Shown piece after piece: positions 5,871-63,799 of a DNA stretch of 64,000 nucleotides (position 1 is its first letter; each line of letters begins with the position of its first letter). The position numbers and the translations under genes were made by a program. The notes under the pieces are model-generated. The model searched no databases, was not told where the DNA came from, and saw only the letters and a list, made by a program, of their open reading frames with translations. Origin of the DNA: Candidatus Bathyarchaeia archaeon (GTDB taxonomy: Archaea > Thermoproteota > Bathyarchaeia > Bathyarchaeales > Bathycorpusculaceae). The stretch spans positions 1-64,000 of the forward strand of contig JAVZLH010000002.1 in NCBI GenBank assembly GCA_038883855.1. The letters are read 5' to 3'.

Positions 5871-5888
5871 AAAGAAAACGGAAACTTT

Positions 5889-6554: not shown

Positions 6555-6701
6555 TTTACTGTTTTCCTATAGAAATTAAGGTTTATAATTAACGTTGCCA
6601 TCTTGCAAAGTTGTTTATACAAATAAATTTCTGGATGGAAACGTTTAAAGCTGTTGACGGAAACTTTAAGGCTCTGTTAAAAATCGCGGTGCGTACTCTA
6701 A

Positions 6702-7619: not shown

Positions 7620-7676
7620 TGCTCTGTCATACGCACCAATATCATTTTATATTTGACCTTCAAACCTTAGCAGTAG

Positions 7677-9338: not shown

Positions 9339-10463
9339 ATGCAAATACAACAGTTTAAAGATATACCACTAAGTATGGAAGTTATGAGAAGCATCGAAGA
9401 TCTTGGATTCGATAATCTTTTTCCAATTCAAGCTCAAGCCATAACGCCATTACTTGAAGGAAAAGACGTTATTGGACAGGCACAAACTGGAACGGGAAAA
9501 ACCGCGGCTTTCGGCATTCCGATGATTGAAAGGCTAAACCCGGAAGTAAAGGGTGTTCAAGGCTTGGTGTTGGTGCCAACTCGCGAACTCGCCGTTCAAG
9601 TTGCAGAACACATCAGCCAACTTGCAAAATACACGAAACTGAAAGTTTTACCAGTTTACGGAGGAGAACCAATTGAAAAACAAATATATGCGCTTGAAAA
9701 AGGCGGTCACATTATCGTTGGCACACCAGGACGCGTAATTGATTTGCTTGATAGACTTATCCTAAATTTGGCGTTGGTAAAGGTTGTTGTTTTAGACGAG
9801 GCGGATAGAATGTTGGACATGGGTTTCAGAGGTGACATTGAATACATACTTTCAAAAGTGTCATCCAGTAGGCAGACAAGCCTTTTCTCGGCAACAATAG
9901 ACCAGACAGTGATGAAATTATGTAACAAATACATGAAGAATCCGAAGAAGATACTTGTTAGCAAGGACGAAATAGCTCTTTCACAAATAAGCCAGTATTA
10001 CGTGGTTGTAAACTCTCACAGCAAATTCGAAGTTTTATGCAACATTCTGGACGAGAACCATATAGAGCGAGCCATAATATTCTGCAAAACCCGATCGGAG
10101 ACAAGCATAATTGCAGATAAACTGAGAAAAAGGGGATGTGATGCAAAACCGTTGCATGCTGGTTTAACTCAACCGCAAAGAGACTTCGTTACAGACTCTT
10201 TCAGAAAAGGCAAGTTAAAGTTGCTTGTTGCAACAGACGTTGCCGCACGGGGTTTAGACATTCAAGGAGTAACACACATAATAAACTATGATGTTCCCCA
10301 AGACGCCTTAGTCTATTTTCATAGGATAGGGCGAACCGCCAGAAAGGGGCAGAGTGGAACAGCCATAACGCTTGTAGGTTACGGAGAAATTGCGGAATTA
10401 AACACTATAAAAGCTCTAACCAAAACGCACATAGAAGAGATAACCGATTCATTCATCCACTAA
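9339..10463 (+). CDS. DEAD-box RNA helicase (core only)
   Basis: Q motif, AQTGTGKT, PTRELA, DEAD, SAT, ARGLD and HRIGRTAR. An SD-like AGGAGT precedes ATG 9339. Confidence 0.95.
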   Translation: MQIQQFKDIPLSMEVMRSIEDLGFDNLFPIQAQAITPLLEGKDVIGQAQTGTGKTAAFGIPMIERLNPEVKGVQGLVLVPTRELAVQVAEHISQLAKYTKLKVLPVYGGEPIEKQIYALEKGGHIIVGTPGRVIDLLDRLILNLALVKVVVLDEADRMLDMGFRGDIEYILSKVSSSRQTSLFSATIDQTVMKLCNKYMKNPKKILVSKDEIALSQISQYYVVVNSHSKFEVLCNILDENHIERAIIFCKTRSETSIIADKLRKRGCDAKPLHAGLTQPQRDFVTDSFRKGKLKLLVATDVAARGLDIQGVTHIINYDVPQDALVYFHRIGRTARKGQSGTAITLVGYGEIAELNTIKALTKTHIEEITDSFIH

Positions 10464-10508
10464 GCATAATAGGTAGAGAGTACACTTTTAAATGAGGTTA
10501 AAACTAAA

Positions 10509-10652
10509 ATGCCTAAAGACCCGGTCTGTGGAATAATTCTCGACGAAAAGACAGCCAAGTTCAAAATCACTTATGAAGGCGAAACCTACTATTTTTGCTC
10601 ATTAATTTGCAGGAAAAAGTTCAAAAAGCACCCAACGAAGTTTGTTAAGTAA
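10509..10652 (+). CDS. YHS/TRASH-domain small metal-binding protein (47 aa)
   Basis: MPKDPVCGIILDEKTAKFKITYEGETYYFCSLICRKKFKKHPTKFVK* carries DPVCG and YYFCS..C, with GAGGT upstream. Below the ORF-track cutoff. Confidence 0.9.
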   Translation: MPKDPVCGIILDEKTAKFKITYEGETYYFCSLICRKKFKKHPTKFVK

Positions 10653-10792
10653 TATAACGCTCATTATCTACTAAATTTTTTCCATGCGTCCTTATAAGCA
10701 AGATTAAGCACTGTATATCAGTAACGTTCTGTCATTCACAGACGCGCAGACACAGCAACGTTACATAAAAACATAAAAGGAGTGAAAAAGGG

Positions 10793-11080
10793 ATGACAGA
10801 AAATAAAGATGTTATCTTCATTGGAAGCAAACCACCGATGGCATATGTTCTAGCAATAATAACAAGCCTTTCAGCAAGCAACGACAAAGAAATAACGTTG
10901 AAAGCACGCGGACAAGCAATTACAACAGCGGTCGACGTAGCCGAAATAGCCCGAAGGCGATTCCTAAAAGACTTGCAAATAAGCAAAATATCCATAGGCA
11001 CAGCGGAAATGCCGCCGAGAGAAGGCGAAAACAAGGCAAGGATGGTTTCAACAATGGAAATAACACTCTCAAAAAAGTAG
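10793..11080 (+). CDS. albA: Alba DNA/RNA-binding protein
   Basis: VIFIGSKP, ITLKARGQAITTAVDVAE and VSTMEITL. Confidence 0.92.
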   Translation: MTENKDVIFIGSKPPMAYVLAIITSLSASNDKEITLKARGQAITTAVDVAEIARRRFLKDLQISKISIGTAEMPPREGENKARMVSTMEITLSKK

Positions 11081-11087
11081 GAAAACA

Positions 11088-11696
11088 ATGCGAAACAAAG
11101 TGTCACACGGCGAATACCTCGCTTTTCTTTCTGTAAAGTATGAAGTTGACCCCGACAGGTTTTTCTACGCGCTAATCTCAGCGAGCGAAAACAAGAAATC
11201 CAAATGTGGAAGCCTTTCAATTGAGTGCCGCGACAAACAAAAGAACAAGGTCACCATTTTGATAACCAAAGGTGCGAAGGTTGTTGCCCAGTTCCCAATA
11301 CCTGAAGAATTTCTATCAAAACAAGGTAATCCAATAAAGGAGTTCAAAAGGAATGTGATACTCCAAAAACACTTAATTCAAAAAAATAATCGACCACGTT
11401 CTTTCCAAATTAGAGACTTGCGAGTAGGGATGAAAAAAATTAATTTAAAGGCTAAGGTTGTTGAAATTGCGAAACCGACGATTGTTTTTACAAAGTTTGG
11501 AAATTATGCCAGCGTAGCCAACGCTTTGATAGCAGACGAGACAGGGACGATTAAGCTATGCTTATGGAACAAACAAATTGACGCTATATCCGTAGGGGAC
11601 GTTGTCCAAATTGAAAACGCGAGCACATCAACATTTAGAGGCGAGAGACAATTAAGAATCGGAAAGAACGGTATTCTGCGTAATATAATACAATGA
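11088..11696 (+). CDS. Single-OB-fold ssDNA-binding protein (SSB/RPA-like) with an extra N-terminal domain
   Basis: C-terminal IRDLRVGMKKINLKAKVVEI...VANALIADETGTIKLCLW...GDVVQIENA..FRGERQL. About 100 aa at the N-terminus are unassigned. Confidence 0.85.
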   Translation: MRNKVSHGEYLAFLSVKYEVDPDRFFYALISASENKKSKCGSLSIECRDKQKNKVTILITKGAKVVAQFPIPEEFLSKQGNPIKEFKRNVILQKHLIQKNNRPRSFQIRDLRVGMKKINLKAKVVEIAKPTIVFTKFGNYASVANALIADETGTIKLCLWNKQIDAISVGDVVQIENASTSTFRGERQLRIGKNGILRNIIQ

Positions 11697-11885
11697 TTTG
11701 CGCTTCCAAACTCGCTCAAAAATAATTATTACTATACTAAACATCAAGTAAGAGTAGGACACCTTTAAATCCGGAGATGGAAAGAAGTAAATTATGACTT
11801 ATGGACTTTTATTGTAAAAAATATTTCGTTGAAAATAAGAAATTAAATAACGGTGAATGTTTAGGTGAGCGGAGGATGTTGCAAA

Positions 11886-49693: not shown

Positions 49694-50677
49694 ATGACTA
49701 AGTCTGTTGAGATTTCTAGGTTGGAGATTGAGATATTGAGGATTTTGAGCGAGTCAGCTGAGCCCATCGGGTCGAGGTTGCTTCAGCGGGAATTGGAGAA
49801 GAGGGGCTTCTTTCTGAGCGAGAGGACTGTGAGGTATCATCTTCAATTGTTGGAGTTGAAGGGTTTGGTTGCTGGGCATGAGCGAAGCGGGAGAACTCTG
49901 ACTAGTCAGGGGTTGGAGGAGCTTAGCGGAGCTTTGGTTTCTCAAAGGGTCGGCTTTGTTATCACCCGTTTCTTGTCGATGGCTTGTTCCGTTACTTATG
50001 ATTATATCGCTGATTCTGGGATGGTTGTTGCGAATGTTTCCATCGTAGATAAGTCTTTTCATGAGAAAATGATGAATATAGTAAAGGATTTGCATGTTGC
50101 GAATTTGCTTTTGGCTCCTTGCATTAAGATTTTAGATGAGAATGAAGAGTATCAGAACATTGTTGTTCCAGAGGGAAAGATTGCTCTTTTCACAATTTGC
50201 GATCTAACCGTGGACGGGGTGCTTATCCGCTCTGGGATCCCTTTATTTTTTAAGTATGGTGGTTTGGTTCAGATGGTGAATGGTAAACCTTTACGTTTTG
50301 TTGATATGATATCCTATGAGGGGACAACGATTTCTCCGCTTGAGCTTTTCGTTAGAAGCAATCTAACTTCGGTTTTGAAGGTTATTAAAACCGGATCAGG
50401 GGTTTTGCCTGTAGGTATGAGGGAGATTGTGAATGAAGCCAGGGAGAGAACATTTAAAATTGTTTCAACGTTGAAGGATAGGAAGTGGGGAGGCGTTTTG
50501 GCTTTGGGCGTTCCAAACGAGCCTGTGCTCGGCGTGCCAGTATCCATGGACAGGTTTGGGTTATGTATGGTTGGCGGCCTTGCTCTGGCAGCAGCTCTCT
50601 TGGAGGGGGGAGCGGACATTGAAACTTTTGCTTCTTACTGTTTAGTTCCCATCGAGGAAATGAAAAGGATAGGCTGA
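49694..50677 (+). CDS. nrpR: NrpR-family nitrogen repressor (wHTH plus a single NRD)
   Basis: EILRIL..S.EPIGS, LSERTVRYHL, RVGFV, TICDLTVDGVL, ISYEGTTISPLELF and VGGL. Sits at the edge of a GS/GOGAT cluster. Confidence 0.88.
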   Translation: MTKSVEISRLEIEILRILSESAEPIGSRLLQRELEKRGFFLSERTVRYHLQLLELKGLVAGHERSGRTLTSQGLEELSGALVSQRVGFVITRFLSMACSVTYDYIADSGMVVANVSIVDKSFHEKMMNIVKDLHVANLLLAPCIKILDENEEYQNIVVPEGKIALFTICDLTVDGVLIRSGIPLFFKYGGLVQMVNGKPLRFVDMISYEGTTISPLELFVRSNLTSVLKVIKTGSGVLPVGMREIVNEARERTFKIVSTLKDRKWGGVLALGVPNEPVLGVPVSMDRFGLCMVGGLALAAALLEGGADIETFASYCLVPIEEMKRIG

Positions 50678-50712: not shown

Positions 50713-52098
50713 TTAATGTCTTAAAATGTATGCATTTATTGATTGTGCTGCTCTTTTTCCTGCTTCTATGGCTTTTATGACCGATGCTGCCCCGCTTACC
50801 ACGTCGCCGCCTGCGAAAATTCCGTTTGACACTTCTAGGGTTTCTTGGTTTACGGTTATTGTTTTGCTCTTTTCTGCAATTTTAATGCTCCGCGTGGTGT
50901 TTGCTGCTGCGATTGTGTTAGGTATATGTTCCGTTGCAATGATGACTGTTTCTGCGCTGTAGAGGAATTCTGAGCCTGGTTCTGGAATTAGCTTTGGTTT
51001 ACCTGTTCTGTCTGGTTGTCCCGGCTTTAACTTTACGAGTTCTACGAGTTTTACCCATTGTTTCTCATCGCCTATAAGCCTGACAGGCTTTGTGGATTGT
51101 TGCAGTTTTACGCCCTCTTCTAACCCTCGCCTTATGTCGTCGGCCCTACCGACAACTTTCCTCTGGTAGAATATACAAGCTTCCTCGGCTCCAAGCCTGA
51201 GAGCAGACCTTGCAGCATCCATCCCCCTTGCGCCCAGTATTGCAACTCTACCTCTAACCTTTATTGGAGTTTTACTTTTGTGGGGGAATAGGCCTGCTTT
51301 CATTAGATTTATTCTCAGTAGGAATTCGTTTAGGGAGTAGACACCGCATAAGTTCTCTCCTGGAATGCCTAAAAGCTTAGGTAAGCCTGCTCCAGTGCCT
51401 AGGAAAACAGCTTTGAAGCCCTCGTCGAAGAGGTCATCTATTGTGAGCGTCTTGCCCACAATAACGTTTGTTTTTATTTCAACTCCAAGCTTTTTAACAT
51501 AATCAATTTCTTTTTTAACAACTTTCTTTGGAAGGCGAAACTCAGGTATGCCGTAGATTAGGACGCCGCCTGGCTCATGCAGTGCCTCAAAAACGACTAC
51601 ATGGTGTCCCTTTTTCGCCAATTCTGTAGCCACGCTTAAACCTGCAGGTCCGCTTCCCACAACAGCCACGCTTTTCCCTGTTGACGGCGATGTTTCAGGA
51701 AGAGCCGCTCCAGTTTCTAATTCCCGATCGGCAACGAACCTTTCGAGGGCTCCTATGTTTATTGGGTCGCCTATGGTGTTTTTGCATCCCATGGCACATA
51801 AGGCTTCTTGTGGGCATACCCTTCCGCAGACTGATGGCATACAGTTTCTCTGCCGGATTTTTTCAGCTGCTTCCCGATAATTGCCTAGTCTGATGAGTTT
51901 TATAAATTCTGGTATGTCAACGTGTAGTGGACACATTTCCACACATAGGGGGCGTGTGCATTGGAGGCATCTTGCAGCTTCGGCTAAAGCCTGCTCTTCA
52001 GAGTACCCTAAAGCCACTTCATCAAAAGTTTTCAAACGCTCTTCAACTGGCAGCTCCGGCATCCTAACTTGTTTTAGTCTAAATTCTAGCTTTTGCAT
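50713..52098 (-). CDS. SudA/NfnB (GltD-like) FAD/Fe-S oxidoreductase
   Basis: RCLQC..LCVEMCP, CGRVCPQE..C...C, GSGPAGL, YGIPEFRLP and FAGGDVVSG. Confidence 0.9.
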   Translation of the reverse strand: MQKLEFRLKQVRMPELPVEERLKTFDEVALGYSEEQALAEAARCLQCTRPLCVEMCPLHVDIPEFIKLIRLGNYREAAEKIRQRNCMPSVCGRVCPQEALCAMGCKNTIGDPINIGALERFVADRELETGAALPETSPSTGKSVAVVGSGPAGLSVATELAKKGHHVVVFEALHEPGGVLIYGIPEFRLPKKVVKKEIDYVKKLGVEIKTNVIVGKTLTIDDLFDEGFKAVFLGTGAGLPKLLGIPGENLCGVYSLNEFLLRINLMKAGLFPHKSKTPIKVRGRVAILGARGMDAARSALRLGAEEACIFYQRKVVGRADDIRRGLEEGVKLQQSTKPVRLIGDEKQWVKLVELVKLKPGQPDRTGKPKLIPEPGSEFLYSAETVIIATEHIPNTIAAANTTRSIKIAEKSKTITVNQETLEVSNGIFAGGDVVSGAASVIKAIEAGKRAAQSINAYILRH

Positions 52099-52925
52099 CT
52101 ACATTCACCTGTTATTTTTAGGGCGACTCTTTCTTCCTCGTCATACATGTGGATTCTGGCTCTGAACTCCTCAAAGTCCACTAGATGAGCGTCAAAGTCT
52201 GGGCCGTCGACGCATGCAAACATGGGTTTACCGCCAACTGTTACACGGCAACATCCACACATCCCTGTTCCGTCGACCATTAAGGCGTTTAGGCTGACGA
52301 TTGTTTTAATCTTATAGGGTTTAGTTGTCTCTGAAATTGACCTCATTAGAGTTGCCGCCCCCACGGCATAAACTAAATCAAACTTTTCCCCAGATTCCAG
52401 TAGGCTTTTTAGAACATCGCTAGCATAGCCCTTCACCCCTTCCGAGCCGTCATCGGTGACAACGTAGAGTTTGTCGCTTACCCCTTTAAGCTGGTCTTTG
52501 AAGATTAACTGTTTAGCTGTTCTGGCGCTGATTATGGCTGTCACGTTGTTGCCTACCTCCTTCATTTTCTTAGCCCTCTCGTAGGCTGCTGCAATGGCAA
52601 CTCCTCTACCGATTACACACGCTTTGCTGTGGATGGTGATTTCGCTTGGTTTTCCCAATGGTCCCACCAGATCGTGGATGACGTCTCCAACTTCTAGTTT
52701 TCCAAGCTCCTTCGTGGACGCCCCAGCCTCCTTAAACACTAGGGTTATTATGCCTTCCTTAGGATCCCAGTCTATCAGGGTTAAGGGGATTCTTTCACCA
52801 TCCTCATCCACCCTTAAAATTACGAATTGCCCTGATCTTGCCTTTCTCGCGATCAATGGCGCCCGCACTTTTATGAGCTTAACCTCTGGAGCCAACTCTT
52901 CCTTAAAGACTATTTCATTCGCCAT
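52086..52925 (-). CDS. SudB/NfnA FAD/[2Fe-2S] subunit
   Basis: GQFVILR...ERIPLT, GPLG, TDDGS, MVDGTGMCGCCRV and CVDGPDFD. Confidence 0.92.
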   Translation of the reverse strand: MANEIVFKEELAPEVKLIKVRAPLIARKARSGQFVILRVDEDGERIPLTLIDWDPKEGIITLVFKEAGASTKELGKLEVGDVIHDLVGPLGKPSEITIHSKACVIGRGVAIAAAYERAKKMKEVGNNVTAIISARTAKQLIFKDQLKGVSDKLYVVTDDGSEGVKGYASDVLKSLLESGEKFDLVYAVGAATLMRSISETTKPYKIKTIVSLNALMVDGTGMCGCCRVTVGGKPMFACVDGPDFDAHLVDFEEFRARIHMYDEEERVALKITGECRCKS

Positions 52926-53575
52926 GATTGATCACTCCAACCTTTATAAAAGCCCCTAGAAATCTCAACGACAACATCCCTTAGGAATTTTCCTGCATAA
53001 AGCAGGTCTGAGAAAACCCTTTTCAAATCTGTTCTTTCACCAAACAAGTTGTGCCTTTCCAGCGCTGCATCTAGAATTTCCTGAACAACCGGCATTTTCT
53101 GTCCATAAACTTTTCTTGCAACATTCCAACACCTGATAAAGTCGGAGTGGTCTAAACCTAGACTGAAATATTCCATTAGGACGGCATATGCCAGTTCTTG
53201 AGGTGAAAGCTTCCTTGAAAGCTTCGCCTCCCAGTAAGCCTTACCTTCATCAACCTTACCGGTGCTGTAAAGGTAGCTCCAGTAAATATATGAATAGAAG
53301 ATATCCACGGTTCTGTCTTGAAACTCTGGACAACTAACTCCAGGGTAATGTCCCCTCGCACATACAGCAACCCCGTCTATGTCTGTTCGATCCTCAAAAT
53401 TTTTACATTCTATGCAAAACCTTGTCTTTGACGCTGTAGCTTTAGCGCCTTCAAACCGGTCTTGAAATTCTTGGCAGGCAACACCCGGGCAATGTCCTCT
53501 GGCACATAAGACCACGCCGTCTATCTCCATCCTATCCTCAAAATTTTTGCATTCAACACAAAATCTGGAAACCAT
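52910..53575 (-). CDS. Hypothetical protein with two tandem 37-aa Cys/His repeats
   Basis: The motif CxxC-x14-C-x3-H-x5-C occurs twice, followed by a helical C-terminal domain. Coupled within the operon. Confidence 0.8.
   Translation of the reverse strand: MVSRFCVECKNFEDRMEIDGVVLCARGHCPGVACQEFQDRFEGAKATASKTRFCIECKNFEDRTDIDGVAVCARGHYPGVSCPEFQDRTVDIFYSYIYWSYLYSTGKVDEGKAYWEAKLSRKLSPQELAYAVLMEYFSLGLDHSDFIRCWNVARKVYGQKMPVVQEILDAALERHNLFGERTDLKRVFSDLLYAGKFLRDVVVEISRGFYKGWSDQSWRMK
53312..53566 (-). repeat. Intragenic tandem duplication (2 x 111 bp, 33-bp spacer)
   Basis: RFCVECKNFEDRMEIDGVVLCARGHCPGVACQEFQDR versus RFCIECKNFEDRTDIDGVAVCARGHYPGVSCPEFQDR, 29/37 identical. Confidence 0.9.
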
Positions 53576-53584
53576 ATTTATCGC

Positions 53585-55189
53585 CTAAGCCAATATGCTT
53601 TCCAGAACTCCGTTGGACGCTTCCTCAGGCAATGGTATGCCAGTAACCTTTGAGGCCCTTTCCGATAACGAAACTAAATCGCTTCTATCCAGTAGATTGA
53701 GTTTCCATTTCCTTGCCCCGGCCATTAGCTGCTGCAGGCCAACCTTTATCCTATCCAGATAAGTGTAGAGTCCAACTGCGCCCCATGGCACCTCTTTAAA
53801 CTTGTCGCCCAGCATGTTTTGCAGGTCTGGAACACCTATAAAAAATTTCTCAGGCATACTGCCAAAAAGTTCTTCGAAATACCTTGGTAACAGCCCTTTC
53901 TGAGCCAAATCAGCAAAGTGGGATGATTTCATAACCGCAGTTAAGGGTGCCCTGCCCATTAATATTGCCTTCACATACGGTCCATCGCCAAAGTTGCTCA
54001 TCGCAATAGCTTTAAATATTTGAGTCTCGTCTATGAAGCCTCCCGCCATAACTATGTCAGGAACAAACCTCCCCTTCTTACTGAGAATTTCTGCACATTT
54101 CAAAACCTGTGCCTCTAGATAAACTGTTGGCGTGCCCATTTCGTTCATCATTGGAACAGGGCTCATCCCTGTGCCTCCGCTGGCACCGTCAAAGACCACG
54201 TAGTCGATTTTAGCTTCGGAAGCCACTTTCATGGTAAAGGCAACAGCTTCTGGACTGTAGGCTCCTGTTTTTAAACTTACCTTCTTAGCACCTTGCTCTC
54301 TTAGCCATTCGACATCTTCAACGAAGCCTTTCTCTGTTGGCATGCCGACGCGACTGTGCCTTTCAAAGGTTTTAAAGACTCCTTGTTTGAAGGCTTCCTG
54401 AACTTCGGGATCTTCAGGGTCAGGTATGACTATGTATCCTCTTTTTTTCAGCATTATAGCCTTTTGCAGATCGCCAACTCTAACTTCGCCTCCAATTGCT
54501 TTGGCTCCTTGACCCCACTTCCGCTCGATGATGTTTACCTCAAGCTTTGAAATCGCGTAGACATCAACGCCAAGCCTCTGATCCTCAACGTTGGTTTGCA
54601 CCGCAATATCACCATATTTCCCATCCCAAAACCTTCTGAAAGCCTCAACTCTCCTTTTAAGCTCGTGTGAAAAGACAACTTTGCCGCTTTCAATTCGGGC
54701 CTCCGGATCCATTCCACAAACGTTCTCTCCAATGGTCACTATTATTCCTGACAAAGCTCCGCCCACCGCTAACCCATCCCAGTTTAGCCTAGCTACATCT
54801 GTTGAACCGTAGGCGCCTATTATTAGAGGGATCTTAAGCGGTACACCTCCAACTTTTGTTTCAATTTCAACGTTTGGAAATATCGCCACATCAGAGTTTT
54901 CATCTATGCCGTTAGCACCCAAAAGCCTCGATTGAATATTAAAATGAGACCAGTCTAAGCCGTAGTCCTTCAAAGCCCCAGCCGTGCTATTTCCAAACAT
55001 GTTGGGATCGGGATAAAGGGCTTCCCTACCTCTAAACGCCGACAATGAAACTTCGCATAGAACTGGGCATTCTTTAACGCATATCGGACACAAACCGCTG
55101 GTTGGGCAGACATCTTCAACCCTAGCCCTAGTTCTAGTTGTCGACATGGAGTTCAAATACGAGGAGTTTCTATGAATTGGGAACGGCAC
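53585..55189 (-). CDS. FMN-binding glutamate synthase family protein (stand-alone, N-terminal Cys cluster)
   Basis: SGLCPICVKECPVLCE, GENVCGMDP, KWGQGAKAIGGE, LKTGAY, DGASGGTGMSP, AGGF and GLQQLMAGARK. Confidence 0.88.
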   Translation of the reverse strand: MPFPIHRNSSYLNSMSTTRTRARVEDVCPTSGLCPICVKECPVLCEVSLSAFRGREALYPDPNMFGNSTAGALKDYGLDWSHFNIQSRLLGANGIDENSDVAIFPNVEIETKVGGVPLKIPLIIGAYGSTDVARLNWDGLAVGGALSGIIVTIGENVCGMDPEARIESGKVVFSHELKRRVEAFRRFWDGKYGDIAVQTNVEDQRLGVDVYAISKLEVNIIERKWGQGAKAIGGEVRVGDLQKAIMLKKRGYIVIPDPEDPEVQEAFKQGVFKTFERHSRVGMPTEKGFVEDVEWLREQGAKKVSLKTGAYSPEAVAFTMKVASEAKIDYVVFDGASGGTGMSPVPMMNEMGTPTVYLEAQVLKCAEILSKKGRFVPDIVMAGGFIDETQIFKAIAMSNFGDGPYVKAILMGRAPLTAVMKSSHFADLAQKGLLPRYFEELFGSMPEKFFIGVPDLQNMLGDKFKEVPWGAVGLYTYLDRIKVGLQQLMAGARKWKLNLLDRSDLVSLSERASKVTGIPLPEEASNGVLESILA

Positions 55190-55224
55190 ATTTCAACCCT
55201 CACACCATTCGATCAATTGCCATC

Positions 55225-55238
55225 GGTAACCTATTGCC
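55225..55238 (-). promoter_or_regulatory. Candidate NrpR operator GGCAATAGGTTACC
   Basis: A 14-bp palindrome (GGYAA-N4-TTRCC) between the TATA box (CTTAAATC, 55247-55254) and the operon start. Confidence 0.55.
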
Positions 55239-55431: not shown

Positions 55432-55698
55432 TTAAGGCGGATGGAAAATGGATATTAGAGTTTCTGTATGAACGACATTTGGGTGCTGCTCTACCATTTC
55501 ATAAATTATTTTCTTGAGTTCTTCAAGACTTTCAGCTTCGATGACGATTACGGCGTCAAACCTTCCCAAGACCGAATTAGCCATTTTAACACCCTTTATC
55601 CGTCTAGACCGCACAATCTCTTCGGATGTGCCAGGCTTCATAGTGACCATGACAAAGGCCCTTAAAGCTTTCTTGCGCAAATCTTTACTCGAAGCCAT
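55432..55698 (-). CDS. Stand-alone Lrp/AsnC ligand-binding domain protein
   Basis: RAFVMVTMKPG, GRFDAVIVIEA and HTETLI. Confidence 0.88.
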   Translation of the reverse strand: MASSKDLRKKALRAFVMVTMKPGTSEEIVRSRRIKGVKMANSVLGRFDAVIVIEAESLEELKKIIYEMVEQHPNVVHTETLISIFHPP

Positions 55699-55724: not shown

Positions 55725-55952
55725 TTAAAGGGCTAGCGAGGTTTCTGTATGGATTATGTTTGGGTCTTTCTCGATGACCTTGTAGACTATTTCGTTTATG
55801 TCTTCAAGCTTCGGTGCCTCTATGATTACTATGGCGTCGAATCTTCCGTAGATTGAGTCGGCTTGAGCAACTTCTTTAACGTTGTTTTTTATTCGTTTGA
55901 CAACTTCCTCTGAAGTTCCTGGCTTCGTTTTTATGAATATGTAGGCTTTCAT
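55725..55952 (-). CDS. Stand-alone Lrp/AsnC ligand-binding domain protein (paralogue of its neighbour)
   Basis: KAYIFIKTKPG, YGRFDAIVIIEA and HTETS. Confidence 0.88.
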   Translation of the reverse strand: MKAYIFIKTKPGTSEEVVKRIKNNVKEVAQADSIYGRFDAIVIIEAPKLEDINEIVYKVIEKDPNIIHTETSLAL

Positions 55953-55984: not shown

Positions 55985-57448
55985 TTAATAATCCAAATAT
56001 TTCATTATCTCCCAAGGTGTTACATAGAGACAGTACTGGTTCCAGTCGTTCATTTTATATTCTATAAATGCATCGAATATATGGCTTCCTAAGGTTTGAT
56101 GTATTACTTCGTCGCTTTTCATTTCTTCCAGCGCATCTCTTAGTGTCGTTGGCAGCTCTCTTATTCCAAGGGCTCTCCGCCTTTCCACTGACATTCTATA
56201 TACATCTTCGTCCACGGGGTCGCCGGGGTCAATTTTCTTTTTGACTCCATCAAGTCCTGCGGTTAATAGACACGCGAAAGCCAGATATGGATTGCATGAT
56301 GGATCGACACCACGATATTCCAATCTCTTTTGGTAGGCGAACTCCGGCCCCTTATAATAGACCGGGATGCGCACTAGGGCTGACCTATTGCGGCGGGACC
56401 ACATTATATAAATTGGCGCTTCAAATCCTGGAACCAAACGCTTGTAGGAGTTAACTGTTGGACAGCATACGGCGCTCAAGGCTCTAGCATGCTCCAAAAG
56501 ACCGCCAATGAAGTACCTGCCGGTTTGGCTAAGCTCCGCATATTCATCGTTCTCGTCGTACATCACATTTCCACCGTCTTTCCATAGGGAGACATGCGTA
56601 TGCATTCCGCTAGCGTTGTCAAGGTAAACGGGTTTCGGCATAAAAGTAGCTACTAAACCGTATTTCTTGGCAACATTCTTAGCCACAAACTTGTAATATA
56701 TGGCTCGGTCAGCAGTCTCGACAAGAGGCCCGTATTGAAAGTCTATTTCTATTTGTCCAGCTGTGGCAACTTCATGGTGATGCTTTTCAATTTTGAAGCC
56801 GAAATAATCTTCCAGAATTGAAGATACCTCATTTCGGTATTGTATCGTTGTGTCTTCAGGAGGCGGCCTATAATAAGCTTCTTTCGGTCTTAACACAAAG
56901 TTTCCAGGGGTTATTTCAGGAGACTGTGGCACAACTCTTGGAGGACCCCAAGAATCGCCTTCGCCGCCTTTTGGGCTTACCCAAAGATCCCAAACAAGTT
57001 TTGTCGGATCTATAGATGCGAACACAAAGTATTCAAGTTCGGGGGCCATGAATACTTCGAAGCCCATTTCCTCAGCAGCTTTCACAGCTCTTTTTGCAAC
57101 ATAGCTTCTTGGACACACTTCTGAAGGGCCGCCGCCGTAGGCTTCATGCACATCGCCTAAAATTATGGTGCTTTTCTGGTTTTCATCGGTTTCCCATGGC
57201 AGTATGGCCAGAGTTTTAGGGTCAGGCATGTAGGTCATGTCTGATTCATCTATGGATTTGAATCCTCTCACAGAAGAGCCGTCAAATCCTAAACCTGACT
57301 TAAAGGCGTTCCCTTCAAGGTACTCCCTTGCAGGCACAATCATGTCCTGTAAAAGCCCTCGTATGTCGACGAAAGCTGAATGAACCCAACGTACCTTATG
57401 TTTTTTCAAAAGCTCTAACGCTCTCTTGACATCTTCATCCTCTATCAT
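55985..57448 (-). CDS. glnA: Glutamine synthetase type I
   Basis: FDGSSVRGF, PELEY, HHEVATAGQ.EI, TFMPKP, SGMHTHVSL, NSYKRLVPGFEAP, NRSALVRIP and RLEYR. Confidence 0.96.
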   Translation of the reverse strand: MIEDEDVKRALELLKKHKVRWVHSAFVDIRGLLQDMIVPAREYLEGNAFKSGLGFDGSSVRGFKSIDESDMTYMPDPKTLAILPWETDENQKSTIILGDVHEAYGGGPSEVCPRSYVAKRAVKAAEEMGFEVFMAPELEYFVFASIDPTKLVWDLWVSPKGGEGDSWGPPRVVPQSPEITPGNFVLRPKEAYYRPPPEDTTIQYRNEVSSILEDYFGFKIEKHHHEVATAGQIEIDFQYGPLVETADRAIYYKFVAKNVAKKYGLVATFMPKPVYLDNASGMHTHVSLWKDGGNVMYDENDEYAELSQTGRYFIGGLLEHARALSAVCCPTVNSYKRLVPGFEAPIYIMWSRRNRSALVRIPVYYKGPEFAYQKRLEYRGVDPSCNPYLAFACLLTAGLDGVKKKIDPGDPVDEDVYRMSVERRRALGIRELPTTLRDALEEMKSDEVIHQTLGSHIFDAFIEYKMNDWNQYCLYVTPWEIMKYLDY

Positions 57449-58585: not shown

Positions 58586-58619
58586 TTTATATACCGGAAA
58601 AATTAGGTAATAGGCAACC
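58586..58619 (+). promoter_or_regulatory. TATA box (TTTATATA) with a downstream candidate operator GGTAATAGGCAACC (58606-58619)
   Basis: Matches the 55225-55238 site at 11/14 positions and lies in a similar position relative to TATA. Confidence 0.5.
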
Positions 58620-58640
58620 ATATGCCTACAAATTGGGTGA

Positions 58641-59087
58641 ATGGATACGAAACGAGTTTACGTCCATGAAGAACTTTGTATGGGCTGCGGGTTGTGCGAA
58701 GTCTACTGTGCAGTTCAGCATTCAGAATCCAAAGATCTTATCAAGGCTTTCAGGAGAGAAACTCCCAAACCAGTCACTCGCATTAAACTACTTCAAGAAA
58801 AGCCTGTATCGTTTCCAGTTCAATGTAAAAACTGCAGCGACCCTTTATGCGTTTCTGCATGCCTATCGGGTGCCATGCGCGTTGACGAGGAAACAGGGTT
58901 AATAATACACGATGAAGAAAGATGCATTGGATGTTTGACGTGCGTCATAGTTTGTCCCGTAGGCGCCGTTAGAATCAACCCAAACAACAGCAAAGTTGTA
59001 ATCAAATGTGACCTGTGCCAAGAAGCTGAAACACCTGCTTGTGTAAAGTTCTGTCCTAATGAGGCGCTAACCCTTGGGGAGGTATAG
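58641..59087 (+). CDS. 4Fe-4S dicluster protein (CooF/HydN-like)
   Basis: CMGCGLCEVYC, CKNCSDPLCVSAC, CIGCLTCVIVCP and KCDLC...CVKFCP. Confidence 0.92.
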   Translation: MDTKRVYVHEELCMGCGLCEVYCAVQHSESKDLIKAFRRETPKPVTRIKLLQEKPVSFPVQCKNCSDPLCVSACLSGAMRVDEETGLIIHDEERCIGCLTCVIVCPVGAVRINPNNSKVVIKCDLCQEAETPACVKFCPNEALTLGEV

Positions 59088-59091
59088 TGTG

Positions 59092-60378
59092 ATGACCGAG
59101 TATGTGATCATAGGTTGCTCAGCCGGAGCGGTAGGAGCTGTTGAAGCCATAAGAGAATTAGACCCAGTGGGTGGTATTGCTGTAATAAGTGAAGAACCAG
59201 TTCCCGCTTATTCGCGTCCAATGATAGGCAAATACCTCAGCGAAGAAGTAAACGTAGAAAGTATGATTTTTCCATCAAAGAATTTCTGGGAAAAGCAAAA
59301 AGTTAAGCTATTCCTCAGGAAGAAGGCGGTTAAACTTGACTTGACCCGGAAAAAGGTTGAGCTTGAAGGGGCTGAAAAAATCGGTTTTGACAAACTTCTG
59401 ATAGCAACAGGAAGCAAGCCAATCATACCAAACATCGAAGGCGTAACAAAAAAGGGAGTACACACCTTTACTAGAATAGCTGATGCCGAGCATATAAAAG
59501 AAACTATTCATGTTGTCAAAGCGCAAAAAGCAGTTGTCGTAGGCGTAGGCCTCGTCGGTATAACCGTCACAGAAGCGTTAGACAAGCTTGGATTAAAGGT
59601 CACCATTGTTGGGCGCAGAGACCGTGTTCTCAATCAAGTCCTTGATCAAAAGGCAGCGAAAATCCTTGAGGAAGCAATGCAAAAAGAAGGGGTATGCATC
59701 GTGAAAGGTCGTACAGTTCAACGTGTTTTAGGGAGAAAAGATGACGATGACATTGTTGGCGGCGTCCTTCTTGACGATGGGAGCTCGATAGAATGTGACT
59801 TAGTTGTGTTTGCCGTTGGTGTTGTTCCAAGAACGGAGCTTGTTGTCAACACTGAATTGAAAATCAACAATGGGATTCTGACCGATAGGTTTATGCAAAC
59901 CAGCATTCCCGACATCTACGCTTGCGGGGATGTAGCTGAAACATACGACTTCGTCAGCGGGAAACAGCGAGTTCTTGCACTATGGCCCTTGGCCAGAATA
60001 AGCGGTAGAGTTGCAGGCTATAACATGGCTGGGCTAAAATTTGAATACCAAGGTGGGACATCTATGATCGCCATCAACCATTTTGGAGTTCCAATAATTT
60101 CTGTTGGCTTAACTACCCAAAACGGAGATTTCGAAGGTTATGAAACGCTGGTTTTCCATGATCAAGAAAGAAGGATTTACAGGAAAATTATACTAAAAAG
60201 CGGAAAAATTATGGGTATGACGCTTATTGGAGACGTTGAAAAAGCTGGCGTAATTTTCCACATTATGAAAAACAAAGTTAATGTTGAGGATTTCAAACAC
60301 AAACTCAGAGCCGACAATTTCAGTTTGGCGTCTCTACCTGAAACTTTAAGAAAACAACTTATCTCGGGGGTTTTGTAA
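59092..60378 (+). CDS. NAD(P)/FAD-dependent oxidoreductase (NirB/rubredoxin-reductase-like)
   Basis: YVIIGCSAGA, AYSRP, LLIATGS, VVVGVGLVG and IYACGDVAE; GGAGGT SD before the start. Confidence 0.9.
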   Translation: MTEYVIIGCSAGAVGAVEAIRELDPVGGIAVISEEPVPAYSRPMIGKYLSEEVNVESMIFPSKNFWEKQKVKLFLRKKAVKLDLTRKKVELEGAEKIGFDKLLIATGSKPIIPNIEGVTKKGVHTFTRIADAEHIKETIHVVKAQKAVVVGVGLVGITVTEALDKLGLKVTIVGRRDRVLNQVLDQKAAKILEEAMQKEGVCIVKGRTVQRVLGRKDDDDIVGGVLLDDGSSIECDLVVFAVGVVPRTELVVNTELKINNGILTDRFMQTSIPDIYACGDVAETYDFVSGKQRVLALWPLARISGRVAGYNMAGLKFEYQGGTSMIAINHFGVPIISVGLTTQNGDFEGYETLVFHDQERRIYRKIILKSGKIMGMTLIGDVEKAGVIFHIMKNKVNVEDFKHKLRADNFSLASLPETLRKQLISGVL

Positions 60379-61526
60379 TGAATATCACCACTCTCCTAAA
60401 CAATCCTTACAAGGACGACAAAGTCATCGATGCTTGTGGGCTCTTCGGTATGATGGACCTTACTGGGAGACGTTTTGGGTCAAAGGACCCTGTTAAAGCC
60501 ATCTCAAACATGCGTGAAAGGGGAAATGGCCTTGGAGGAGGCTTTGCCATCTACGGGCTTTACCCCGAACACAGGGATGACTACGCATTCCACATAACGT
60601 ATTTGAATACAGAAGCAAAAGAAAAAGTTGAAAGGCTTTTATCACAAAACTTTGACGTTGTCGAAGCCGAAGAAATACCCGTCAATCCAAAAGCGAACGT
60701 TTGGAATCCTCCTCTAATTTGGCGATATTTCCTCCAGCCAAAGAAGGGTGCTGTCAAATGTCAACAAGACGATGAATATGTGTTCTATAACGTTATGAAG
60801 ATCAATACCGAGTCAAGTGGCGCCTTTGTATTTTCCAGCGGAAAAAACATGGGCGTATTCAAGGGTGTAGGCTTTCCAGAGGATATCGCCGAGTACTTCT
60901 GCCTAGACGAATACGAAGGTTACATGTGGATCTGTCACGGGAGGTTTCCGACAAATACTCCAGGCTGGTGGGGCGGTGCTCACCCATTTAGCATCCTCGA
61001 CTGGGTGGTCGTGCATAACGGAGAACTGTCAAGCTATGGAGCCAACCGAAGATTCCTCGAAATGTACGGTTACCACTGCACAATGCAGACCGACACGGAA
61101 GTCATGGTTTACGCATTAGACTTGCTCGTGAGGAAACAGAAGTTGCCAATGGAAGTTGCCGTAAAAATATTGGCTCCGCCTCTATGGATCGAAATCGACG
61201 CCATGGAACCAGGCAAAAGAGAGTTATATACGGCGTTACGCCAAAGCTATGGCAGCTTACTAATGAATGGGCCCTTTACCATAATCGCAGCCCGTACAGG
61301 AGAAATGATTGGCTTAACGGACCGCATAAAGTTAAGACCGCTTACAGCGGGCATTAGGGGAGATTTGCTCTTTTTGTCTTCCGAAGAATCCGCCATGCGG
61401 GCAGTTGCACCCAATTTGGATAAAGTTTGGGGCCCTCGTGGAGGCGAACTCGTAATTGGGAGACTTAAAGAGATGAGAGCTCCAGAAATTGTGGCTCCTG
61501 AGGTGGGAAGATCAAGAGCTATATAG
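60378..61526 (+). CDS. Class II glutamine amidotransferase subunit of a split glutamate synthase (GltB1/GlxB-like)
   Basis: DACGLFG, ERGNGLGGG, HGRFPTNT, HPF, HNGELS, TDTEV, LMNGPF and DRIKLRP. Confidence 0.92.
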   Translation: MNITTLLNNPYKDDKVIDACGLFGMMDLTGRRFGSKDPVKAISNMRERGNGLGGGFAIYGLYPEHRDDYAFHITYLNTEAKEKVERLLSQNFDVVEAEEIPVNPKANVWNPPLIWRYFLQPKKGAVKCQQDDEYVFYNVMKINTESSGAFVFSSGKNMGVFKGVGFPEDIAEYFCLDEYEGYMWICHGRFPTNTPGWWGGAHPFSILDWVVVHNGELSSYGANRRFLEMYGYHCTMQTDTEVMVYALDLLVRKQKLPMEVAVKILAPPLWIEIDAMEPGKRELYTALRQSYGSLLMNGPFTIIAARTGEMIGLTDRIKLRPLTAGIRGDLLFLSSEESAMRAVAPNLDKVWGPRGGELVIGRLKEMRAPEIVAPEVGRSRAI

Positions 61527-63022
61527 AGCCAGAATTTATTGTCGAGCGAGACGACCAGAAGTGTATACGATGTAAGGTTTGCATAAACCAGTGTACCTAC
61601 GATGTACACTATTATGATCCCGAAGACGACGTTATCAAAAGCCTTAACGAAAATTGTGTAAACTGCCATCGTTGTGTGGTGTTCTGCCCCACGAAAGCGA
61701 TAACGATAAAGAGGAACCCGACGCGGTACACTGAGAACTGGCATTGGACCCAAGAAGTCATAACAGCAATTAAGAAACAGGCTGAAAGTGGTGGAGTAAT
61801 CTTAACAGGTATGGGATGTGACAAGCCCCATTACACTTACTGGGATAAAATTCTTCTCAATGCCAGCCAAGTGACTAATCCATCAATAGACCCGCTAAGA
61901 GAACCGATGGAGCTTAGAACATTTTTAGGCTCAAAACCTGATAAGCTTGAACTTGAATTGGAAAGCGGTGATTTAGTATTAAAAACGAAGTTGTCGCCCC
62001 AACTGTGCGTTGAAACTCCGATTCTCTTTGCAGGAATGTCCTATGGAGCTGTAAGTTTCAACGTTCACCTAGCATTGGCTCGAGCCGCTGCGCAATTCGG
62101 CACTTTAATGAATACTGGCGAAGGTGGTTTAGACAAGCGACTATACAAATATGGAGACCACGTAATTGTTCAGGTGGCTTCAGGACGCTTCGGTGTCAGC
62201 CCAGACTATTTAAATGTGGGTGCAGCAATAGAAATTAAAATTGGGCAAGGAGCCAAGCCAGGAATAGGCGGCCATCTTCCGGGAGAGAAAGTCACAGAAG
62301 ACATATCCAAAACACGCATGATTCCGGTCGGAACGGATGCTTTATCGCCAGCACCCCAACATGATATATACTCAATTGAAGATTTGCGTCAACTAATCTA
62401 TGCCTTGAAAGAGGCTACAGATTATACCAAGCCTGTTGGCGTCAAGATAGCCGCTGTACATAACTCTGCCGCCATCGCAAGTGGCATGGTTCGAGCCGGA
62501 GCCGACATAATCGTTCTTGATGGAGTTAGAGGTTCAACCGGCGCGGCACCTAAACTCATTCGGGATAATGTCGGCATCCCCATAGAGTTGGCTTTAGCTT
62601 CGGTGGATCAACGCTTAAGGGAGGAAGGCATTCGCAACAAGGCATCCATAATAGTGTCAGGGGGCATAAGAAGCAGCGCCGACGTTGTAAAGGCAATTGC
62701 CTTAGGAGCAGATGCTGTGTACATTGGCACAGCTGCCTTGGTAGCTATTGGCTGTACTTTGTGCCAGAAATGTTACACAGGGAAATGTCCATGGGGCATA
62801 GCAACTACGGATCCATGGATTTCTAAGCGTGTTAATCCAGACATCGCTACAAGGAGACTTGTTAACCTTCTGCAATCGTGGAGTCTCGAGATCAAAGAAA
62901 TGATGGGCGGCATGGGCATAAACTCCATTGAAAGCCTCCGCGGCAACCGTTCACAACTTCGTGGCGTGGGATTAACAGACATCGAACTTAAGATTCTAGG
63001 AATAAAAATGGCTGGTGAATGA
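61511..63022 (+). CDS. Glutamate synthase FMN subunit with N-terminal 2x[4Fe-4S] (GltB2/GlxD-like), apparent ATC start
   Basis: The frame is open from TGA 61499: IKSYIEPEFIVERDDQKCIRCKVCINQC...CVNCHRCVVFCP, then MSYGA, NTGEGG, QVASGRFGV, KIGQGAKPGIGGHLPG.KV and CTLCQKCYTGKCPWGI. Confidence 0.9.
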   Translation: MKSYIEPEFIVERDDQKCIRCKVCINQCTYDVHYYDPEDDVIKSLNENCVNCHRCVVFCPTKAITIKRNPTRYTENWHWTQEVITAIKKQAESGGVILTGMGCDKPHYTYWDKILLNASQVTNPSIDPLREPMELRTFLGSKPDKLELELESGDLVLKTKLSPQLCVETPILFAGMSYGAVSFNVHLALARAAAQFGTLMNTGEGGLDKRLYKYGDHVIVQVASGRFGVSPDYLNVGAAIEIKIGQGAKPGIGGHLPGEKVTEDISKTRMIPVGTDALSPAPQHDIYSIEDLRQLIYALKEATDYTKPVGVKIAAVHNSAAIASGMVRAGADIIVLDGVRGSTGAAPKLIRDNVGIPIELALASVDQRLREEGIRNKASIIVSGGIRSSADVVKAIALGADAVYIGTAALVAIGCTLCQKCYTGKCPWGIATTDPWISKRVNPDIATRRLVNLLQSWSLEIKEMMGGMGINSIESLRGNRSQLRGVGLTDIELKILGIKMAGE

Positions 63023-63025
63023 AAA

Positions 63026-63799
63026 ATGAAACCCGCTAAACGTTCAGGGCAAGACTCCATCAGGGATGATGTTGCAATCATAAACGCTGAAGGTATGCAT
63101 TACCAAGACTTGCACTTTCTAATAAAATCCCACAGTAACTCTTCTAGGAGGATAGACATCTACAACGTTAACGGACAAAGATACATAGGCACCAGCCTCA
63201 AAAATAACGTTGAACTTCACCTGTACGGAACACCCGGCAACGACCTCGCAGCCTTTATGGACGGTCCCACAATTTACGTCCATGGCAACGCACAGGATGG
63301 CGTTGGAAACACCATGAGCAATGGAAAAGTTGTTGTTTATGGACGCGCAGGAGACATAGTCGGGTATTCCATGCGAGGTGGCAAAATCTTCATTCGTGAT
63401 GACGCAGGATACAGGGTTGGCATACACATGAAAGAGTATGGCAACCAAAAACCCATCCTCGTAGTCGGGGGCACTGCTCAAGACTTTTTAGGAGAGTATA
63501 TGGCTGGAGGAATCTTAGTCATTTTAGGACTAACATTGAAAGATGGAGAAACTCACAAAGCTAAATTTGTAGGCACCGGGATGCATGGCGGCGTAATGTA
63601 TATCAGAGGTCAACCGGCACATACAGGAAAAGAGGTAAAGATCACAGAGCTTGAAAAAGATGACGAGGCCGTGCTTAGACCCATCATTGAGGAGTTTTGC
63701 AACTACTTCAACTTCGACGTTGACACCATACCCCTAAGAGAATTTAAAAAACTGATTCCGCTTTCAACTAGACCATACGGAAAACTTTACGCCTACTAA
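63026..63799 (+). CDS. GXGXG-domain subunit of a split glutamate synthase (GltB3/GlxC-like)
   Basis: GQRYIG, GTPGNDLAAFM, GNAQDGVGNTM, FLGEYMAGG and GTGMHGG. Confidence 0.92.
   Translation: MKPAKRSGQDSIRDDVAIINAEGMHYQDLHFLIKSHSNSSRRIDIYNVNGQRYIGTSLKNNVELHLYGTPGNDLAAFMDGPTIYVHGNAQDGVGNTMSNGKVVVYGRAGDIVGYSMRGGKIFIRDDAGYRVGIHMKEYGNQKPILVVGGTAQDFLGEYMAGGILVILGLTLKDGETHKAKFVGTGMHGGVMYIRGQPAHTGKEVKITELEKDDEAVLRPIIEEFCNYFNFDVDTIPLREFKKLIPLSTRPYGKLYAY

Follow-up and report, generated by a model that had tools for sequence, protein, structure and literature searches.

We identified, in the genome of a Candidatus Bathyarchaeia archaeon, a four-gene operon in which a module derived from Nfn, the electron-bifurcating NADH/ferredoxin:NADP+ oxidoreductase, appears to have lost both of its nicotinamide nucleotide sites and is joined to a glutamate synthase (GltS)-like enzyme inside a putative nitrogen regulon. 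The operon lies on the minus strand at positions 50713-55189 of the window, by which we mean the whole stretch of 64,000 nucleotides (nt) that was analysed (assembly GCA_038883855.1, contig JAVZLH010000002.1, positions 1-64,000). The comparisons below indicate that the arrangement is real and not an artefact; the function proposed for it is deduced. Judged by the annotation of its nearest homologues, the window belongs with Bathyarchaeia and related Thermoproteota. Bathyarchaeia are abundant, uncultured archaea, and Nfn serves as the structural model for flavin-based electron bifurcation.

An Nfn-like pair altered at both nucleotide sites

The four open reading frames (ORFs) of the operon encode, in order of transcription, a flavin mononucleotide (FMN) protein of 534 amino acids (P0001; 53585-55189, minus strand), a Cys/His-repeat protein of 221 amino acids (P0002; 52910-53575, minus strand), a protein of 279 amino acids that resembles the S subunit of Nfn, known as NfnS, NfnA or SudB (P0003; 52086-52925, minus strand), and a protein of 461 amino acids that resembles the L subunit, known as NfnL, NfnB or SudA (P0004; 50713-52098, minus strand). 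All frames are uninterrupted. A gap of 9 nt separates P0001 from P0002, P0002 overlaps P0003 by 16 nt and P0003 overlaps P0004 by 13 nt. The four genes are translationally coupled and form one operon, as had been stated in an earlier reading of the same DNA (hereafter the original prediction), which described four tightly coupled genes without stops or frameshifts.

The NfnL-like protein P0004 matched the NCBIfam model TIGR01316 (gltA; E 4.1e-147) and the Fer4_20 and Pyr_redox_2 families. Among solved chains it matched NfnB of T. maritima (4ylf_B; E 1.4e-126) and the L subunits of P. furiosus NfnI (5jca_L; 7.3e-123) and NfnII (5vj7_A; 3.8e-117). In the alignment to the Nfn structures, the glycine-rich loop that reads GAGNTAMD or GGGNTAMD is GA--RGMD in P0004, with two residues deleted; the segment YRRTEREMPAR is YQ---RKVVGR, with three residues deleted and the first Arg changed to Gln; and ATEH stands in place of AIGQ. 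In the P. furiosus NfnI structure, as described in PMC6405883, the extra phosphate of NADP+ is hydrogen-bonded by two conserved arginines. Judged by the P0004 alignment, these correspond to the YRR pair. The NADPH site typical of NfnSL, made up of a G-x-G-N-x-A-M-D loop and the Y-R-R arginines at the 2'-phosphate, is not found in P0004, and the protein appears to be without the sequence determinants of NADPH binding.

The other cofactor sites of the L subunit are present. In the alignment of relatives, the [4Fe-4S] ligands C44, C47, C52, C56, C95, C101, C105 and E98 are invariant and C91 is conserved in at least 90% of the sequences; the Rossmann motif for flavin adenine dinucleotide (FAD), GSGPAG, begins at G148. 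The ligands of both [4Fe-4S] clusters and the FAD motif of NfnSL are thus all present. PMC12221290 describes Arg201 and Arg333 of P. furiosus NfnI-B as flanking the bifurcating FAD and gives an extended N-terminus and an immediately upstream nfnA gene, set apart or overlapping by a few nt, as hallmarks of NfnB. By alignment, R188 and R318 of P0004 are the counterparts of the two arginines, and both are invariant among the relatives. The extended N-terminus is kept (the alignment to 5jca_L begins at query residue 10 and chain residue 8), and the nfnS-like gene stands directly upstream, in the 13-nt overlap given above.

A similar picture emerged for the NfnS-like protein P0003, which matched NCBIfam PRK06222 (E 8.8e-112) and DHODB_Fe-S_bind and belongs to the NfnS/PyrK-type proteins with FAD and a [2Fe-2S] cluster. 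The three motifs that form the NAD(H) site of NfnSL (GGGxG, GxR and GPxxMM) are all altered: GGGVGIA reads GRGVAIA, GFR or GAR reads SAR, and GPAIMM or GPTIMM reads GAATLM. These altered motifs were found in five of five copies that stand in the FMN-operon context, namely those of the window and of loci L001, L004, L005 and L006. PMC6405883 gives ERxPxT as the FAD strand and DGTGMCGxCR..C as the [2Fe-2S] motif of the S subunit; P0003 keeps both, as ERIPLT and DGTGMCGCCR..C (DGTGMCGCCRV...C). P0003 thus appears to lack the sequence determinants of NADH binding. Its match to NfnI-type S subunits (5jca_S, E 1.7e-88; 4ylf_A, 9.7e-73) is far better than that to NfnII-S (3e-50), which argues that the change at its NAD site had an origin separate from that in NfnII. 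As judged from the alignments, the variant pair keeps all five cofactor sites together with both arginines of the bifurcating flavin. Every substitution named in the original prediction (GARGMD, YQR, ATEH and the short deletions in P0004; GRGVA, SAR and GAATLM, beside an intact [2Fe-2S] motif, in P0003) was recovered in these alignments.

The altered motifs define one conserved clade

To distinguish drift from a conserved state, an alignment of 121 NfnL sequences, P0004 of the window and its 120 best database relatives, was analyzed. Both deletions were present in 55 of the 121 rows and the other 66 were canonical. The new His of ATEH (H390) occurs in 54 of the 55 variant rows, the exception being P0173, which has the deletions and keeps AVGQ; Gln replaces the first Arg of YRR in 53 of them. 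The second Arg of YQR is variable across the variant clade (R, Y, W, Q or K), as expected if contact with the 2'-phosphate is no longer under selection. A FastTree phylogeny was built from the 114 full-length rows, after seven fragments of fewer than 430 amino acids (P0140, P0172, P0174, P0177, P0178, P0179 and P0225) had been dropped. All 48 variant rows in it fall on one side of a single branch with a support of 99, and a single change of state is therefore enough.

Mean pairwise identity in the NADPH domain was 0.71 within the variant clade, 0.70 among the canonical rows and 0.42 between the two groups; in the other NfnL domains identity between the groups was 0.52-0.70. Since conservation within the clade equals that of canonical Nfn, the NADPH domain has been rebuilt and then held, and not freed from selection. 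The changes are fixed throughout the clade, whose members range in identity from 94% to about 64%. When the window was compared with loci L001 and L005, the nonsynonymous divergence (dN) of both Nfn-like genes was low (0.13-0.17). The dN/dS ratio suggested along with the original prediction was unusable, as synonymous divergence (dS) was saturated in 11 of the 12 pairwise comparisons and the lone ratio obtained (0.027, at a dS of 5.95) is unreliable. Because a saturated dS allows no ratio, conservation per domain was used instead. Orthologues with canonical motifs would have pointed to drift in one strain; those in the operon context carry the altered motifs. Taken together, the alignments indicate that the motif changes define one monophyletic, well-conserved clade and not drift, in line with the earlier proposal of a repurposed, not decaying, Nfn pair. 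That the changes are decay in genes on their way to being lost is accordingly very improbable: the motif losses themselves, and nothing further, speak for it, and against it stand the intact frames, the fixation of the changes from 94% to about 64% identity, the dN of 0.13-0.17 and a domain conservation equal to that of canonical Nfn.

The FMN protein and its family

The Pfam profile Glu_synthase (PF01645) matched P0001 at residues 291-397 only (E 1.2e-8; 35 bits, above the cut-off of 20.4), which corresponds to profile positions 193-296 of 369, and no NCBIfam model matched the protein. For comparison, the canonical GltB encoded elsewhere in the window matched the same profile with 478 bits (E 2.2e-143). 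When a profile of P0001 relatives was compared with this GltB, hhalign returned a probability of 97.3% (E 1.6e-11) over a region that includes both the GQGAK loop and DG..GGTG, which we take to be the defining motifs of the glutamate synthase FMN domain. P0001 differs from GltB by a large insert and by having no Cys where GltB reads C-x2-C-x2-C-x4-CP; the Cys cluster behind the barrel, which holds the [3Fe-4S] or [4Fe-4S] centre of glutamate synthase, is absent. At its N-terminus P0001 has C34-x2-C37-x3-C41-x3-C45, four cysteines that are invariant among close relatives and presumably form an Fe-S site. The AlphaFold2 (AF2) model had a predicted local distance difference test score (pLDDT) of 85.2, and its best folds in the PDB by Foldseek were generic FMN triosephosphate isomerase (TIM) barrels, such as glycolate oxidase, lactate oxidase and isopentenyl diphosphate isomerase type 2 (IDI-2). 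A sequence search of solved structures with P0001 gave no match. These comparisons indicate that P0001 is a second, divergent GltS-type paralogue, distant from the canonical GltB of the same cell.

The start of P0001 is most likely the GTG at 55189 and not the ATG 14 codons downstream (55147-55189, minus strand). Conservation among homologues extends over residues 1-14, of which N8, S9, Y11, L12 and N13 are nearly invariant; the ESM Atlas record begins at residue 15.

The family is compact: a search of 1.84 billion proteins gave no more than 881 representatives (at 50% identity) with E up to 0.001. Relatives of P0001 were confirmed in at least 594 of at least 600 pattern-matched stretches from contigs of one genome per species. 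Neighbourhoods of the FMN gene were counted in 80 loci kept from these confirmed stretches, most of them from Bathyarchaeia. A gene for glutamate dehydrogenase (GDH) lies within three genes of the FMN gene in 39 of the 80 loci, and in 33 it follows directly on the same strand after gaps of 36-106 nt. A class-II GATase-like gene comes after the FMN gene in L043 and L035, and in L047 a canonical glutamate synthase (GOGAT) operon stands beside it, its five genes directly upstream of the FMN gene. Two GDH paralogues flank the FMN gene in L020 (5185-7014, minus strand; 9671-10927, plus strand), and likewise in the majority of Bathyarchaeia loci. The divergent upstream paralogue has an N-terminal extension of about 190 amino acids (609 in total) for which there was no Pfam match, and is itself adjoined by the genes of a 649-amino-acid protein without family and of a KaiC/RecA-like protein.

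One relative of P0001, the 800-amino-acid protein P0378, has a 4Fe-4S dicluster domain and the N- and C-terminal domains of FrhB/FdhB fused to its GltS-like domain. It may represent a P0001-type enzyme that depends on F420 or ferredoxin, and because of this fusion electron-input modules that can be exchanged would exist in the family, which suggests that the electron-input partner of P0001 is interchangeable too. The GltB motifs, the N-terminal Cys4, the neighbouring genes and the P0378 fusion together suggest that P0001 belongs to glutamate/ammonia metabolism. In this way the analysis ties an uncharacterised GltS-like protein that is common in these archaea to nitrogen assimilation.

The Cys-repeat protein

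P0002 consists of two repeats of the form C-x2-C-x14-C-x3-H-x5-C followed by a helical C-terminal domain, and the Cys and His residues are invariant or nearly so. From this ligand pattern P0002 may bind a metal (Zn, Fe or a cluster). No Pfam or NCBIfam family covers the protein, no Pfam match was obtained at E below 0.002 across 39 members, no usable match was found in the ESM Atlas, and no PDB fold matched at E up to 0.001. Its 62 relatives, all unnamed or annotated as hypothetical, come from the same taxa as the variant NfnL proteins. In the AF2 model, residues 1-86 have a pLDDT below 50 and the helical domain (about residues 90-210) mostly reaches 75-96 per block of ten residues. A complex prediction of the NfnS-like and NfnL-like proteins with P0002 as partner (961 residues) gave a score of 0.00, against a mark of 0.32, and counts as evidence neither way.

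Association of the FMN gene with the Nfn-like genes

The gene order FMN, Cys-repeat, NfnS, NfnL was found, as far as the contigs reach, in L001, L004, L005, L006 and L008 only; in L008 the arrangement is cut by the contig end. In 74 other loci there was no variant NfnS or NfnL gene and no Cys-repeat gene beside the FMN gene (L047 has a weak and distant match of 39%). For ten clusters each of the variant NfnL family and of the Cys-repeat family the longest contigs were equal in size, which hints that the two families may share contigs. The upstream context of the remaining variant loci is not conserved. As the module is restricted to a few of the 80 loci, its three genes look like a cassette that one sub-clade gained at the junction of the FMN gene and nrpR.

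In L080, a locus from one Bathyarchaeia genome, a canonical NfnS/NfnL pair with all nucleotide motifs intact (5382-7643, plus strand) precedes the FMN gene by about 345 nt. The pair may reflect an ancestral gene order or may be there by chance.

A nitrogen-assimilation island with a shared palindrome

The locus is a nitrogen-assimilation island, with glnA upstream of the operon, nrpR downstream of it and a canonical GOGAT operon close by. The nrpR gene (49694-50677, plus strand), with HTH_12 and NRD1_2 domains (Pfam NRD1_2, E 4.3e-73), lies 35 nt past the last operon gene, P0004, in convergent orientation. In L001, too, it comes after NfnL, and so it does in L005 up to the end of that locus, where the nrpR match is cut short; in L003, L009, L010 and L012 it stands directly after the FMN gene. 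Upstream, on the same strand as the operon, glnA (55985-57448, minus strand) matched TIGR00653 (GlnA; E 5.9e-176). A gene for an Lrp regulator is also near the operon.

The canonical split GOGAT operon (58641-63799, plus strand) encodes a ferredoxin, a Pyr_redox_2 flavoprotein, a GATase_2 amidotransferase (60378-61526), the GltB FMN subunit and a GXGXG subunit. It is complete, amidotransferase included, and lies 3.4 kb from the FMN operon, with its GltB FMN subunit 6.5 kb away. Amidotransferase and GXGXG partner domains occur only in this operon (60378-63799) and not in the FMN operon. The original prediction had noted that there is no amidotransferase; this holds for the operon and not for the locus, and because a complete GOGAT operon with GATase_2 stands nearby, the statement has to be limited to the four genes. 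Its further proposal of a glutamate synthase complex is weakened by the canonical GOGAT 3.4 kb away, by the remoteness of the FMN protein from GltB and by the 74 of 80 loci in which no Nfn-like genes accompany the FMN gene.

A 21-nt palindrome (GGYAWWWGGYWRCCWWWTRCC) is common to the promoters of the two operons and in each stands beside a TATA-like box. The GOGAT copy (58606-58626, plus strand) is perfect and the FMN copy (55218-55238, minus strand) is operator-like with three mismatches. The 14-nt core (GGCAATAGGTTACC; GGYAAYNGGYWRCC) has two mismatch-free copies in the window, one in each of these promoters, the one on the FMN side being 36 nt upstream of the GTG start. Perfect palindromes were also found in the FMN promoters of L004 (161-181), L005 (7964-7984), L006 (809-829) and L008 (7963-7983). 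Among the 77 loci with upstream sequence, nine have the core less than 150 nt upstream of the FMN gene; in the 80 loci as a whole (1.12 Mb) the core occurs ten times, and nine of these ten are within 150 nt upstream of an FMN gene. In methanogens, the NrpR operator is GGAA-N6-TTCC. Three matches to it were found in the window, where 1.55 are expected by chance, and none of them is near the operon. The palindrome, which is unlike the methanogen NrpR operator, is a candidate for the operator of a nitrogen regulon outside methanogens. Its adjacency to nrpR suggests that NrpR may bind it. The NrpR control put forward in the original prediction remains plausible in view of the gene 35 nt beyond the operon and the palindrome common to both promoters, with the reservation that the methanogen operator is absent nearby.

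Between glnA and the FMN operon two tandem genes (55725-55952 and 55432-55698, minus strand) encode small proteins of the Lrp/AsnC type (AsnC_trans_reg, E 1.9e-10 and 8e-8); these proteins, 75 and 88 amino acids long respectively, consist of the ligand-binding (RAM) domain alone. Small RAM-type genes likewise adjoin the FMN gene in L058 and L072, and L070 shows a weak RAM-like tblastn match at this position. The electron-input genes of the GOGAT operon encode a multi-cluster ferredoxin of 148 amino acids and a Pyr_redox_2/Rubredoxin_C flavoprotein of 434 amino acids (PadH/NirB-like), not a GltD subunit. The remainder of the window holds housekeeping genes only. Downstream in L080, a gene for the small subunit of replication factor C (RFC; 9693-11801) contains an intein.

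Proposed function and alternative explanations

The best, if unproven, overall explanation of these observations is that the three accessory proteins form an electron-input module for the FMN enzyme that is linked to ferredoxin and independent of pyridine nucleotides, a reading to which we give a probability of about 0.4. As in Nfn, the distal [4Fe-4S] cluster of the L subunit would be the docking site of reduced ferredoxin. From there electrons would run through the L clusters and flavins and reach the FMN protein at its N-terminal cluster, perhaps by way of metal sites in the Cys-repeat protein, and the FMN would reduce a substrate resembling 2-iminoglutarate, so that glutamate is formed from ammonia independently of an amidotransferase. 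NrpR, encoded next to the operon, would probably control it together with glnA and GOGAT by way of the common palindrome. The module itself would be an accessory gained by one sub-clade; elsewhere the FMN protein would work without it or, in one relative, with an FrhB-type fusion.

Several points weigh against this proposal. In 74 of the 80 loci the FMN gene occurs without Nfn-like genes, most often with GDH next to it, so the FMN protein would not depend on the module, and operon structure is the sole argument for linking the two. Searched against solved structures with a limit of E 0.01, the P0001 profile retrieved designed TIM barrels only and no GltS; the substrate of the FMN protein is deduced from its motifs and neighbouring genes only, and the loss of nucleotide binding from sequence alone. 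For canonical Nfn, PMC6405883 gives potentials of about +80 mV for the [2Fe-2S] cluster and about -718 mV for the proximal [4Fe-4S] cluster, which make a linear wire through the FAD of the L subunit (L-FAD) awkward. Both arginines at the L-FAD are kept, and it can therefore be argued that this flavin retains two-electron chemistry and is not a mere relay. Finally, with a full canonical GOGAT next door a second glutamate synthase would be partly redundant.

The L-FAD arginines lead to the alternative that survives best, which we nevertheless regard as unlikely: the pair still bifurcates or confurcates, the remodelled NADPH domain takes another two-electron partner (F420H2, a small molecule or a Cys-repeat site), and the FMN enzyme or the Cys-repeat protein acts as the high-potential branch that replaces NAD+. 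The hallmarks of bifurcating NfnB listed in PMC12221290 are kept (the L-FAD arginines, the extended N-terminus and the upstream nfnS gene), the altered domain is as constrained as the canonical one, and it has acquired the new fixed residues R291, Q312, R324 and H390 (54 of 55 rows). There is also a precedent in P. furiosus NfnII, for which PMC6405883 and PMC12506544 describe an altered NADH domain and, as far as these accounts go, a high-potential acceptor that is not known. The sequence names no candidate ligand, however, and the Cys-repeat protein resembles no known redox carrier. We know of no NfnL, GltD or dihydropyrimidine dehydrogenase (DPD) homologue that takes anything other than NAD(P)H at the L flavin. 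In its boldest form, to which we assign a small chance, the clade would be the first NfnSL-type bifurcating scaffold that uses neither NADH nor NADPH, with a new two-electron partner supplied by the L-flavin pocket and the Cys/His-repeat protein and with the GltS-like enzyme as one branch, giving a ferredoxin-coupled, energy-conserving route between ammonia plus 2-oxoglutarate and glutamate in uncultured relatives of Bathyarchaeia.

Slightly less probable again is that the Cys-repeat, NfnS and NfnL genes make up a cassette of their own whose products act without the FMN protein; they might, for instance, serve as a redox or sensor module that is linked to ferredoxin and regulated by nitrogen. 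The loci L003, L009, L010 and L012, in which nrpR comes straight after the FMN gene, make the three genes look inserted at that point, and the FMN gene does without them in the 74 loci mentioned. Against independence, only 9 nt lie between the stop of the FMN gene and the next start and the following genes overlap, the four-gene order recurs in L001, L004, L005, L006 and L008 as far as the contigs reach, and the operator is found upstream of the FMN gene only.

It is doubtful, finally, that nucleotide binding survives in a non-canonical form and that the pair is an ordinary NAD(P)H-dependent Nfn or a GltD-like reductase that feeds the GltS-like enzyme. The fold of the NADPH domain is retained and conserved, the second Arg of YRR remains in the window protein (YQR), and in L080 a canonical NfnSL pair stands immediately upstream of the FMN gene. 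The loss of two residues from the loop and of three beside the 2'-phosphate arginines in all 55 variant rows nevertheless argues against such binding, as do the lack of conservation of the remaining Arg in the clade (R, Y, W, Q or K) and the change of all three NAD motifs of the S subunit in five of five copies; the Pfam Pyr_redox match of P0004, moreover, covers the FAD Rossmann segment only (residues 143-177).

Comparison with known systems

A literature search, with most subscription journals outside its scope, found no NfnSL described as lacking both nucleotide sites and no description of the Cys-repeat or P0001 families. The closest known systems are the NfnSL (NfnAB) enzymes of T. maritima (4YLF/4YRY) and P. 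furiosus (NfnI; 5JCA/5JFC), with which the window pair shares the overlapping nfnS-nfnL gene pair, similarity over the full length, the ligands of the [2Fe-2S] cluster, the two [4Fe-4S] clusters and both FADs, the L-FAD arginines and the extended N-terminus. It differs from them in the remodelled NADPH loop and 2'-phosphate Arg pair of the L subunit, in the change of AIGQ to ATEH and in the three changed NAD(H) motifs of the S subunit. Unlike NfnSL, pairs of this type also come with a Cys/His-repeat gene and downstream of a GltS-like gene (in the window and the five operon-context loci). Since the nucleotide motifs of both subunits are changed, the transhydrogenase reaction of NfnSL is unlikely in the window pair.

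Natural Nfn relatives with reduced nucleotide use are found in P. furiosus NfnII (Xfn; 5VJ7) and in the single-subunit Fnor class. NfnII has an altered NADH domain on the S subunit and, in the account given by PMC6405883, no NAD+-dependent activity, and PMC12221290 describes 'cluster 2' Fnor enzymes that are without an NfnA subunit. Both retain NADP(H) at the L flavin, whereas the window pair is altered at its NADPH site too.

The putative F420H2-dependent glutamate synthases of methanogens (FGltS I and II), which in PMC3448663 are predicted from genomes only, offer a parallel in that archaeal GltS-type enzymes exchange their electron-input modules, the fusion in P0378 being a similar case. 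They differ in that the input module in the window would be derived from NfnSL and not from FrhB; both systems are known solely at the level of sequence.

The combination of a GltD/NfnL-type module with FAD and two [4Fe-4S] clusters and an FMN TIM-barrel module is also that of GltB/GltD (6S6X, 2VDC) and of dihydropyrimidine dehydrogenase, and P0004 matched GltD chains with E values of 6.1e-65 and 3.5e-62. Unlike GltB/GltD, the window operon has no NADPH site, amidotransferase or GXGXG domain, and NfnS-like and Cys-repeat subunits are added; unlike GltB, P0001 has an N-terminal Cys4 instead of a post-barrel Cys cluster. To our knowledge, all characterised relatives (NfnI, NfnII, Fnor, GltD and DPD) work with NAD(P)H at their L flavin. 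The variant clade, in which the environment of the bifurcating flavin and the clusters are kept and both nucleotide sites appear rebuilt, would thus be a natural test of the other couplings that this scaffold can support.

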